A stretch of DNA of 64,000 bases from Thainema sp. (lineage in GTDB: Bacteria > Cyanobacteriota > Cyanobacteriia > Phormidesmidales > Phormidesmidaceae), in contig JBQLZK010000015.1 of assembly GCA_052168235.1 (NCBI GenBank), positions 1 to 64,000 on the forward strand, given 5' to 3'. Positions 28,601 to 32,674 of the stretch are shown here, piece after piece (within the stretch, counting starts at the first letter, position 1; every line of letters starts with the position of its first letter). The notes under the pieces were generated by a model. That model worked only from the letters and a program-made list of their open reading frames with translations. It had not been told where the DNA came from and did not search any database. Made by a program: the position numbers and the translations under genes.

Positions 28601-31600
28601 ATAGCGTTCAGCCGCTTGACCAGCTTTCGCTAACAGATCATCGGTATAGGCTTGTGCCGTCCGATCAACTCCCTCAGCATCATGTTCTGCCGGAGACTCC
28701 ACCGGATCGAGGTCAAGCCCTGCTCGAATCTCATTAATCACCTCAAGCTGCGTCTTGGGCTTACTCTGAGCTTTGGCATCAACCACTTCCACCTGCACAC
28801 CGGAACCAAACGTACTCCGCACTCCCGGCATAGCAGAAATGATTTCGGCCTGAGCCAGCGGCCTAGCATCGAGATCAACGGCTTCTGCTTCCAGAATGTT
28901 ATTATCCAACGCCTTCTGCTGCTTAACGAAGGACGTGTATTCGTCTTCCAGAATGCTGTAGAAGGCTTCCTGCTCGTCCACACTGAGCAACGGCAGTCGG
29001 CCTGTCACCTTTGCGATCGCACCCTCTGTCGCATCTTCTAGACTCGTAACGCCATCTGGATTCACCGTAATCGGATAATCCAGCTTTTCGTTGATTTCGG
29101 GATATTCGCTCAAGACCTGTTCGACCACCGCATCCCCGTACTGGTTGAAGAAGTCCGGGATCTGGGAGGTATCAAAACCGGCGTTCTTATCTGCCGTGGT
29201 GTTGGCATTGAGGCTGGACATCTTCCGCTCTAGCAGGGCCGCTGGGCGTTTTTCATCCGGAGTATCTCCCATCAGCAGCGAAATGCGGGGCGGCACCACC
29301 TGGCCGGTGCGGTGGGCACGGCCTAGGGTTTGCATAAAGTCGTTTACGTTGCGCTCAGCCTGACCCACAATCATGTGGCGGCGACGCTGATCCGCAAACT
29401 TCTTTGACGCATGCAGGGAAATGCCCGTGGCTCCCGATCGATTCAGCAGCATTACGTCAGTTTTGCCGTCGTTGAAGCGATCTGTCGCCCTGACTTTGCC
29501 TGCCTTGCTGGTTTCGCGGGAGCTGCGCCGCCCATAGGTAGCGTTGCCCTCGCTGTCATAATCCAGGCGAACTTTACGCCCGGTGATTTCACCAAAGCGG
29601 TAGCCCGCCTGCTCAATGCGCTGCTTAATCGTGTCGATGGGAGAAACTGGAAAATCTAGATCAGTATTCGCAATCAGCGCTTTGGCTTCCTCATACTGCT
29701 GGACGGCTGCTGGCCCCAGTTCTTCGTCGCTTAGCCGCCTGCGGGTTTGCGTGCCATCGTAGTCTTTCTCTAGCACATCGCGGCTACGCTCTAGGTAGCG
29801 CCGCATGATGTCGCCAAAGGTGGCGTCGAAAGCATCACCGGGGGCAATATCGTTTTCATTGGCATAGTGCTCAATAAAGCTGCCCATTGTATTAGAGACA
29901 GTTAGAATCGGCTTTTCGCCCCGCTCCAAACTGGCAATCGCCTCATCTGCCATTTGTCCCGCCTTACGAGAGAGCAACGACTGATCCATGACGTTGTGCA
30001 TGACGGCTGTGAAGTTAGTAGAATCGGCTCCGGCTTGCCCAACGGAGTTATCGGTACCAACCTTCTTAGCATCGGCCTTCAGGCGATCATCTAGACCTTT
30101 GAGAGCATCTTGCTTGGTGCGGTCAAACTCCAAAATTTTGCCCATGATGCGACTGAGTCCATCCGTAGAGTCGCGATCAACGGGCACGCTCTGAATCCCG
30201 AAATCAACCCCTTCGTAATTGCGCTCGCGGCGATTGTAGAAACCGTCCTGCGCCAGCATATTGGTGGAAACCTGCTGCAGCGGCGTACCACCGATCTCTA
30301 GCGCCGATTGCAGCTCCTCGATAGAACCGGCAGCCTGTCGCATCCCGGATCGCCGCCCGTAGAGATCCATCACGTCCGGGCGCTTAATCGCCGTAGCGGA
30401 ACTAAAGGTAACGCCATCGGCTTTATCCACCAGTTGCCGGGCAAAGTCGGCACGATTGGGTGGACCTGTCTTTTTCCAAGAATTCTCAGGCTCGGGTGAG
30501 CCGCCTGCCTCGTGGGCCTCATCAAAAAGAATTAAAGACTGAGGAGCGATCCTATCGAGGAACTGACGCCGAGGCGTTTCCTTGCCCTTAACGGTCTGCA
30601 TCTGACTGTAGGTCGTGAAGATGCCGTCATAATCATCGGTAGCGGCAAAGCCTCCTTGCTGAATCAAGCGATCAAGTTCAGCAGCGTGACTACCCCGTTT
30701 CGTTTCCAGCGTGCGTCCATCCGGCAGCGGCACCTTTTCTTGACTATTGGTAATGAATGGCCGAAAGCCCTTAGAACCAATATCATCCAGGTCACGGATC
30801 ATGTCTGAATAGAGCCCTGCGTCACGGGTGACAAAGATCGGAATCCGATCAGTCTCCTGGGCATAGCGAATCATTGCGGCCATTTGCCGCCCTTTGCCAA
30901 CCCCCGTCTGATCGCCAATTAGTGACCCGTCCCCTCGCTCAATGTTGTCAATGGATAGTGCAACCCCATCGACTTGTTCAGCAGCTAACACCTGGTGCAT
31001 TGCGTTAACCGAGGGATAATTGAGCTTCCTGGCCACAAACTCATCGACATTACCGACACGCCCCTCCAGGTCATCAAGTGCGCTTTGCACCGCCGAGGCC
31101 ATATTGCGCGGGGTAAGAGTATCCAGCCGGGGTCCCTGACTCCTAGGTACATATGGAACCTGGCTGGCCATCGGTTGAGTTGGTTGAGTTGTCTCTGTTG
31201 CCATATCATTTCCTGCCTGCACTGTCCTTACTTCCCGAAGAACATCAGCCACTCCTCCAGCGTCTGTTCCTCCACCGTTGCGATCGCGTCCTGGCGGTTC
31301 TCGCCCTGAACCATCGGCAGCGGATAGTCCTCCGGCTCCGGAGCGACTTCTAGCGTCCAGATCGTTGACATCCAGGAACTCTGAGCGATCGCGCTGCCCC
31401 AGTTCTCCGGCGTCACTCGGCTCGGTGGCGGCATCGCGAAATCGGGCACCTGATCCGTCAGCAATCGCTGGCGAATCATCGAATCTACCTGCTTCAGCGA
31501 CATCTGCTGATCCTCGCTCCATTGCCGGATCATCCAGGCGATCCGGGCTGCCAGTAGTTCCTGATAGTCCGCGTAATGTGCGATCGCGCTCTTGTCCTGG

Positions 31601-32674: not shown

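Follow-up and report, generated by a model that had tools for sequence, protein, structure and literature searches.

Long genes nested within another gene on the same strand are textbook knowledge in phages and viruses, and phage genes such as Rz1 in Rz of lambda and E in D of phiX174 are overprinted in this way. In bacteria few such genes have been described and many of these are contested; the rules of annotation pipelines do not permit them. One example is comS of Bacillus subtilis, which comprises 46 codons, lies out of frame within srfAB and acts in competence. Here we describe a nested gene in a window of 64,000 nucleotides from the cyanobacterium Thainema sp. (the whole stretch analyzed, positions 1 to 64,000 of contig JBQLZK010000015.1, assembly GCA_052168235.1). 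It is an open reading frame (ORF) of 157 codons, whose product we name X, and it lies in the linker between the methyltransferase and helicase halves of a plasmid-borne 2328-codon host gene.

Regions of overlap tend toward disorder in one frame, according to passages of a preprint (bioRxiv 10.1101/229690), and passages of Iyer et al. (2017, PMC5512222) speak of a paucity of polyvalent proteins in cyanobacteria. For the locus described here we favor, at a probability of roughly 0.8, a dual-coding linker that gives rise to a fused methylase-helicase plus separate X, the latter probably a partner of the downstream helicase. A fusion with an embedded partner had been put forward by an earlier reading of the same DNA that used the letters alone (the sequence-only reading). 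Computation established the conservation of the X ORF, frame-specific selection, the avoidance of stops in the host frame, a conserved Shine-Dalgarno (SD) sequence and start codon, and a confident fold.

Results

A shifted-frame ORF lies in the linker of a methylase-helicase gene

The host ORF (25688..32674, minus strand, ATG start) encodes a putative N6-adenine-type methyltransferase, a disordered linker, a Strawberry-notch-like superfamily 2 helicase and C-terminal regions that include DUF6908. X is encoded on the same strand at 31228..31701 by 157 codons plus a TAA stop (31230-31228). Its ORF lies wholly inside 25688..32674 in another frame and is thus a same-strand nested overlapping gene; the offset of the two starts (32674-31701 = 973 = 3x324+1) places it in the host's +1 frame. 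Among the same-strand ORFs in alternative frames of the host gene it is the longest, and it begins just past the host peptide ...ESYDELKEVL. Right upstream of the nested ATG (31701-31699) lies an SD-like purine run (31702..31717, minus strand) with AAAGAGG at 31717-31711 and GAGGA at 31706-31702, which falls within the host codons L-K-E-V-L-R. Position, start, stop and SD-like run are all as the sequence-only reading had described them.

Three HIP1 sites are located in the overlap (first bases 31587, 31392 and 31287). All three encode A-I-A when translated in the nested frame but R-D-R in that of the host, which bears out what had been noticed before, and three of the four other HIP1 sites of the host ORF read A-I-A in the host frame. 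The whole window carries 60 HIP1 octamers, as expected for a cyanobacterium.

The X ORF is conserved among cyanobacterial methylase-helicase loci

A phmmer search of 1.84 billion representative proteins of any length found 13 relatives of X, all of 93-170 aa and with identity down to 30%. Profile searching gave 16 relatives, all of them unnamed or called 'hypothetical' and most of them on short contigs (509-7756 bp). In the family alignment P91, P127 and W151 are invariant, W10-x-P12 is near-invariant, and a T-L-E-E-W-L motif marks the C-terminus.

DNA of the relatives was obtained by tblastn of plasmid records, by tblastn with the host N-terminus and by one genome scan with a narrowed family alignment, which gave three close loci. 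The hidden Markov model (HMM) of the X family was then run against all stop-to-stop ORFs of each locus. We found the X ORF in 13 cyanobacterial methylase-helicase loci, always in the +1 frame and just past a DELKEVL-type helix: the window, Chroococcidiopsis (L001), three close relatives (L002-L004), two copies in Acaryochloris (L005 and L019), Leptolyngbya NIES-3755 (L006), four Picosynechococcus loci (L007, L008, L009 and L018, the last being plasmid pAQ6 of PCC 7002) and Gloeobacter (L011). A +1-frame match was present in 11 of the 13 sources first examined, L010 and L012 being the exceptions, and later also in pAQ6 and in the second Acaryochloris copy. The family HMM had no match in L010, where the methylase is not followed by an Sbno helicase, and none in six non-cyanobacterial loci (L012-L017, including Thalassospira, L012). 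Stops in the nested frame of homologous loci, which would have spoken against the sequence-only reading, do not occur: the frame is open in 13/13 cyanobacterial loci with a methylase-Sbno junction. In the 11 loci tested out of these, the host frame is open over at least 1100 codons and the third sense frame is closed, its longest run being 5-67 codons.

Two plasmids may serve as examples. In PCC 7002 plasmid pAQ6 (NC_010480.1; L018 3078..3584), X lies inside an annotated strawberry-notch protein. Plasmid NZ_CP064924.1 of Acaryochloris marina S15 has two methylase-Sbno genes (L005; L019, 133979-139494), each with a nested ORF, and one of the two stands directly downstream of parA/parB and a GNAT gene.

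An assembly or sequencing artefact, in which two compensating frameshift errors displaced an in-frame domain, is refuted by these independent records. The same arrangement recurs in 12 independently sequenced records, complete plasmids among them, and the host frame is open throughout. Moreover, no X embedded in frame in a longer protein was found by phmmer at any protein length, nor in a further search over 299-2000 aa, which is weak evidence.

The start signals of X are shared as well. An SD core (GGAG, GAGG or AGGA) is located 4-13 nt upstream of the nested ATG in 12/12 loci, compared with 65/634 (10%) of the other ATG triplets in the same genes, and the purine core before the nested ATG persists while the host residues over it vary (KE, RG, EE). 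Start, stop and ribosome-binding site are conserved, and X is probably translated in vivo, as these signals suggest. The same element also bears on a programmed +1 ribosomal frameshift near DELKEVL, which would yield a methylase-X fusion ending at the X stop. The prfB +1 shift has an SD-like stimulator, and the purine-rich element just upstream of X resembles it; the +1 frame relation, too, is the same in 13/13 loci. However, the junction holds neither a host-frame stop nor a rare codon, and in the window a nested-frame stop lies right before the ATG (TGA GGA ATG), so that a shift would have to fall within 2 codons. The conserved ATG with its SD in 12/12 loci and the fact that relatives of X are called as stand-alone proteins from that Met also speak for internal initiation, and we regard a frameshift as very unlikely.

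The sequence-only reading had further expected that standard annotation would miss X. This held in 11 of 12 annotated or readable relatives. Gloeobacter is the exception: on Gloeobacter morelensis plasmid pGMOR1 (L011 3926..4375), RefSeq calls the nested ORF as hypothetical protein WP_230844304.1. For the methylase part the record has no protein-bearing coding sequence, despite the long open frame of 2911..6930, and this annotation is inconsistent with that of the other 11 relatives.

Purifying selection in the overlap acts on the nested frame

We scored divergence per codon position and calculated the ratio of nonsynonymous to synonymous divergence (dN/dS) by the Nei-Gojobori method (NG86) for close pairs. 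Between the window and L003, divergence by host codon position amounted to 0.121/0.087/0.464 and 0.086/0.044/0.485 in the flanks (3>>1>2). In the overlap the same host positions gave 0.244/0.122/0.103, which is the order 3>1>2 in the nested frame. This switch to the nested frame was seen in two separate clades, the second being Picosynechococcus.

The dN/dS values agree with this pattern. The nested frame gave 0.11-0.31 in 9/9 close pairs, as against 0.57-2.9 for the host frame and 0.53-1.6 for the unused third frame in the overlap; the flanking domains gave 0.02-0.16. In the overlap, purifying selection at the amino-acid level therefore acts on the nested rather than the host frame; selection confined to the host frame, which would have contradicted the sequence-only reading, is the reverse of what we see. 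Synonymous sites of X seem to be under an added constraint as well, because dS in the nested frame lies below that of the flanks: it was 0.47 versus 1.24-1.55 between the window and L003, about a third, with a smaller drop in the Picosynechococcus pairs (0.66-0.76 versus 0.81-0.93).

These data decide whether X is a mere shadow ORF, i.e. a GC-rich low-complexity linker that happens to be open in a second frame without there being a second gene. The overlap has 61% G+C, an antisense ORF of 137 codons is found here too, and long alternative-frame ORFs of junk composition abound in proteobacterial relatives, all of which would fit this explanation. Yet X is also open in loci of 48-50% G+C with its protein sequence conserved, its dN/dS is low, its SD and ATG are conserved, and its predicted fold is confident (see below). 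Unlike X, the antisense ORF contains stops in lineages outside the GC-rich clade. Conservation, dN/dS and the antisense contrast thus refute a chance shadow ORF. Conservation in 12 other loci together with frame-specific purifying selection shows, far better than length could, that X is more than chance.

The antisense ORF itself (31278..31691, plus strand) was considered as a gene and rejected. It is open only in the GC-rich close relatives, which identifies it as a GC shadow, and has 5-10 stops elsewhere.

The host frame is kept free of stop codons

The host-frame linker (residues 325-520; 31115..31702, minus strand) is rich in G, A, R, S, D and P, predicted to be disordered and stop-free, in line with the R/G/D/A-rich, stop-free frame of the sequence-only reading (R/G/D/A/S-rich by our count). 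We estimated how many stops should be expected by holding the nested protein fixed and redrawing its codons from flank usage. The overlap holds no host-frame stops in 11/11 loci, compared with 2.9-13.4 expected (per-locus P(0) 0.038 to <2e-4), while the third frame has 6-15 stops at 4.4-12.5 expected. As a calibration, the same relative frame was examined in the flanking domains, where 10/11 loci have 0.033-0.075 stops per codon and a ratio of observed to expected stops of 0.63-1.08.

Homologues of the host protein are likewise fused. A search at E<=1e-20 gave 551 homologues, of which the best 120 measure 1340-2774 aa and mostly cover 98-100% of query residues 1-1000; those among the best 120 with a named source are all cyanobacterial. 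In the 67 of these 120 in which all three motif patterns matched, the linker has 161-209 aa (median 191), is rich in G/A/R/S/D/P and is depleted in K, Y, I and F. Between lineages the host-frame linker is unalignable. The linker frame, stop-free against expectation, yet unconstrained in its amino acids and unalignable, is therefore a passenger that is selected only to stay open and, presumably, flexible.

Stop avoidance also bears on the possibility that methylase, X and helicase are three ordinary cistrons, with the 2328-codon ORF an annotation illusion and no fusion being made. A number of features would suit such an arrangement. X has its own SD and ATG, a host-frame start lies past the X stop in 12/12 loci (in Gloeobacter as an ATGA overlap), RefSeq annotates Gloeobacter in this way, and the host-frame linker lacks amino-acid constraint. 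In Persicobacter, methylase and helicase are separate genes with a 4-nt overlap. Nevertheless, there is no locus in which a stop ends the methylase, even though the same relative frame is full of stops in the flanks. The length and near-complete alignment of the best homologues speak for a fused protein, and proteobacterial relatives that lack X are also fused. We consider three separate cistrons unlikely and prefer a fused host protein with X encoded inside its linker. The plasmid of Persicobacter psychrovividus (L016; Bacteroidota) shows that the split architecture exists without X: its methylase and Sbno genes (2402..3424 and 3421..) adjoin with nothing between them.

X is predicted to fold and to bind the downstream helicase

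AlphaFold2 modeled X with a mean predicted local distance difference test score (pLDDT) of 90.6 and a predicted template modeling score (pTM) of 0.87 from a 16-sequence alignment; the model is a globule made up largely of helices, with short strands. When the same DNA was read in the host frame, the model reached a pLDDT of 51.7 and a pTM of 0.12 from a 4-sequence alignment, which we read as disorder. X had no match in Pfam or NCBIfam, none of the 16 family members matched PHROGs, and PADLOC gave none either. The best hit among PDB sequences had an E-value of 0.22. Foldseek found no PDB structure at E<=0.001 (best TM score 0.24), the ESM Atlas gave no usable match, and tblastn of phage records gave no match. 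As modeled, X is a folded protein without a described family or fold in the libraries searched.

Three chains were folded jointly, each with its own unpaired alignment: X, the methylase domain (residues 1-325) and the helicase (residues 505-1000). The complex reached an interaction prediction score from aligned errors (ipSAE) of 0.69 (0.68, 0.72 and 0.69 in the single runs) versus 0.00 for the best of three controls. In calibration, the ipSAE mark had been reached by 116/157 solved complexes and by 2/215 mismatched pairs, counts that hold only roughly for a three-chain job of this kind. For the partners pLDDT was 84 or higher, with a contact agreement of 68% or higher. X makes its confident contacts exclusively with the helicase chain, and the score fell to 0.00 when this chain was replaced.

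The predicted contact on the helicase is a lobe-1 segment just past the Walker A loop (host residues 617-697; 30584..30826, minus strand), with residues 617-620, 623-624, 627, 643-653, 659-660, 688, 690 and 693-697 at the interface. On the side of X, residues 14-27, 63-66 and 138-157 are predicted to take part, including the region of the invariant W151. Neither X nor the helicase chain has a solved sequence relative among PDB sequences, which makes recall of a known complex unlikely. We infer that X most likely binds the helicase encoded just downstream, and that it may regulate it, as the modeled position on lobe 1 suggests. The embedded partner of the sequence-only reading, for which that reading had suggested a role as inhibitor, chaperone or coupling factor, thereby gained a predicted site on the helicase.

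A host-frame start codon follows the nested stop

The sequence-only reading had pointed to a host-frame Met at 31204 that could restart a helicase-only product. The ATG is indeed there (31202..31204, minus strand), 23 nt past the nested stop and with CAGGAA upstream. Relative to the last base of the nested stop, 11/12 loci have a host-frame ATG somewhere between 4 nt before and 26 nt after, and L005 has a GTG there instead; in the window and in L002 an in-frame host GTG is also present nearer to the nested stop. The conserved N-terminus of the helicase follows downstream of this start codon. Although Met makes up just 1.1% of linker residues, one is found within the 35 residues that precede the Y-x-P-[RK]-S motif in 56 of the 67 homologues with all motif patterns. 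A helicase-only isoform is therefore plausible with regard to its start codon, which in 12/12 loci is no more than about 30 nt away from the nested stop, but it is less well supported than X, because an SD core precedes this start in only 5/12 loci.

Host protein and its surroundings

The methyltransferase domain comprises host residues 1 to about 324 (31703..32674, minus strand), ends with the helix ...SYDELKEVL and is kept in host alignments. Pfam matches in this half are sub-threshold only (N6_Mtase, E 0.044; UPF0020, E 0.026), and PADLOC models mad2 (E 9.9e-7) and MTase_II (E 1e-3) match it. NPPF and EPTAGHGAL are visible in its translation, which may be the NPPF/DPPY-type and S-adenosylmethionine-binding motifs of an N6-adenine methyltransferase. 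About 190 residues without a family match separate this half from the helicase. The Strawberry-notch-type helicase core (28910..30934, minus strand) is defined by Pfam matches above the curated cut-offs to AAA_34 (residues 581-836, E 4.5e-18) and Helicase_C_4 (residues 1027-1255, E 1.6e-26), with DUF6908 further C-terminal.

Genes for an SSB, an M23 peptidase, an AAA ATPase, a ParA-like protein and a MobA/VirD2 relaxase surround the host gene, which marks the element as conjugative or mobilizable. Directly past the 3' end of the host gene, XisH and DUF2887/DUF4351 genes are found on the opposite strand (23682..25574, plus strand). Upstream on that strand, at 7046..22285, a GTG-started single ORF has 5079 codons.

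Discussion

We propose that the linker between the two halves of this plasmid-borne protein is dual-coding. Ribosomes that follow the long frame would make the fused methylase-linker-helicase, for which the linker frame need only stay open and flexible. Other ribosomes would start at the internal SD and ATG (31701) in the +1 frame and release X as a separate folded protein. X might then dock with its C-terminal TLEEWL helix and its N-terminal strand region on the RecA-like lobe 1 of the helicase and act there as an accessory or regulatory subunit, be it activating, inhibiting or coupling. The host-frame start just past the X stop may in addition yield a helicase-only product.

Several points have to be set against this explanation. 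The 13 loci represent only about 7 independent lineages. In Gloeobacter, RefSeq starts the helicase at 4372 in an ATGA overlap with X. The same locus is the exception in the stop calibration: its flanks hold only 0.009 stops per codon, and its open host frame could therefore be due to chance (P(0) = 0.27). What speaks for the fused protein is stop avoidance together with homologues that have the fused architecture; the host-frame linker has no amino-acid constraint by dN/dS. The two AlphaFold2 runs were not equally informed (4 versus 16 sequences). The binding result is a model confidence, obtained with three chains and their own alignments, unlike the jobs used for calibration. Promoter-like and terminator-like sites were looked for in 31000-32900 and not found, which carries no weight either way.

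One possible origin of X, which we hold with considerable doubt, is birth de novo by overprinting in an older disordered linker, after which X would have become a subunit or regulator of the downstream helicase. From then on, selection would have shifted to the new frame, leaving that of the old linker as a passenger that avoids stops. This origin is suggested by non-cyanobacterial relatives, which have the linker without detectable X, and by X having no sequence or fold relative. X may instead have been captured as a ready gene.

A plasmid of Thalassospira lucentensis (NZ_CP136683.1; L012 3965..4381) carries a 139-codon +1 ORF at the equivalent linker position. It has a protein-like composition and an ATG at 3998. 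The family HMM gave no match to it, and hhalign to the X family gave a P of 0.049 and a probability of 1.1%, so that homology to X is not demonstrated. It may be an independent or a very divergent nested gene.

If overprinting were the true origin, new folded proteins would find a nursery in the flexible linkers of giant mobile-element proteins. X would then show, for bacteria, a confidently folded protein whose de novo origin can be traced, and the locus would be a self-contained 'gene within its own partner' module.

Bacterial examples of long same-strand nested genes that are as clean as this locus are rare. The comparative evidence is unusually clean, as it combines a switch in codon periodicity, a contrast in dN/dS and stop avoidance in the 'loser' frame. 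X spans several cyanobacterial orders, including the genetically tractable PCC 7002 with its plasmid pAQ6. An unannotated protein of 150-170 aa with a new fold may be hidden in hundreds of cyanobacterial proteins annotated as 'strawberry notch'. X is also a concrete test case for overlap-tolerant gene finders. Our data suggest that a second gene can be accommodated in inter-domain linkers, since these are nearly unconstrained. There may be a third component to the methylase-helicase establishment and anti-restriction machinery of cyanobacterial plasmids, one that could control the helicase.

No report of this nested gene was found in the literature searched, and within the PCC 7002 proteogenomics literature, supplements not included, no paper mentioning pAQ6 was found. 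Same-strand nested genes are a known kind; what is new to our knowledge is a long one that occupies a linker of a bacterial mobile-element protein, leaves the host frame as a passenger and has a product predicted to bind its own host protein. Among the nearest analogues is comS within srfAB, likewise a same-strand gene inside a very large multidomain gene; comS, too, is equipped with start signals of its own and yields a small protein independent of its host. In contrast to comS, which has 46 codons, lies in the coding region of a catalytic domain and serves an unrelated pathway, X has 157 codons, occupies an unconstrained inter-domain linker and is predicted to bind its host protein. Like Rz1 in Rz and E in D, X is a nested same-strand +1 ORF with its own fold.

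Tombusvirus p19 in p22, as portrayed in passages of PMC11044054, shares these traits. Unlike such viral overprints, which belong to compact genomes with limiting coding space, X is found phylum-wide in a large cyanobacterial plasmid or conjugative element. XLalphas and ALEX of the GNAS locus come close in another respect, since overlapping frames of one transcript encode two unrelated proteins that interact (passages of PMC1186735). That pair is eukaryotic and its interaction was shown by experiment; X is bacterial and plasmid-borne, and its interaction is predicted.

The host gene and its relaxase, SSB, ParA-like and M23 neighbors fit the methylase-helicase dyad of mobile elements (Iyer et al., 2017, PMC5512222). 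The passages of that paper on the dyad make no mention of a gene nested in the linker. Different from the paucity of polyvalent proteins in cyanobacteria of which other passages speak, we obtained 551 homologues of the host protein, and those with a named source among the best 120 are cyanobacterial. Finally, long antisense overlaps in E. coli and Pseudomonas aeruginosa, as presented in parts of PMC8850804 and PMC7103648, resemble X in being long and excluded by annotation pipelines. While those overlaps are antisense, young and shallow, X lies on the same strand as its host, extends across cyanobacterial orders and displays a clear switch of frame.

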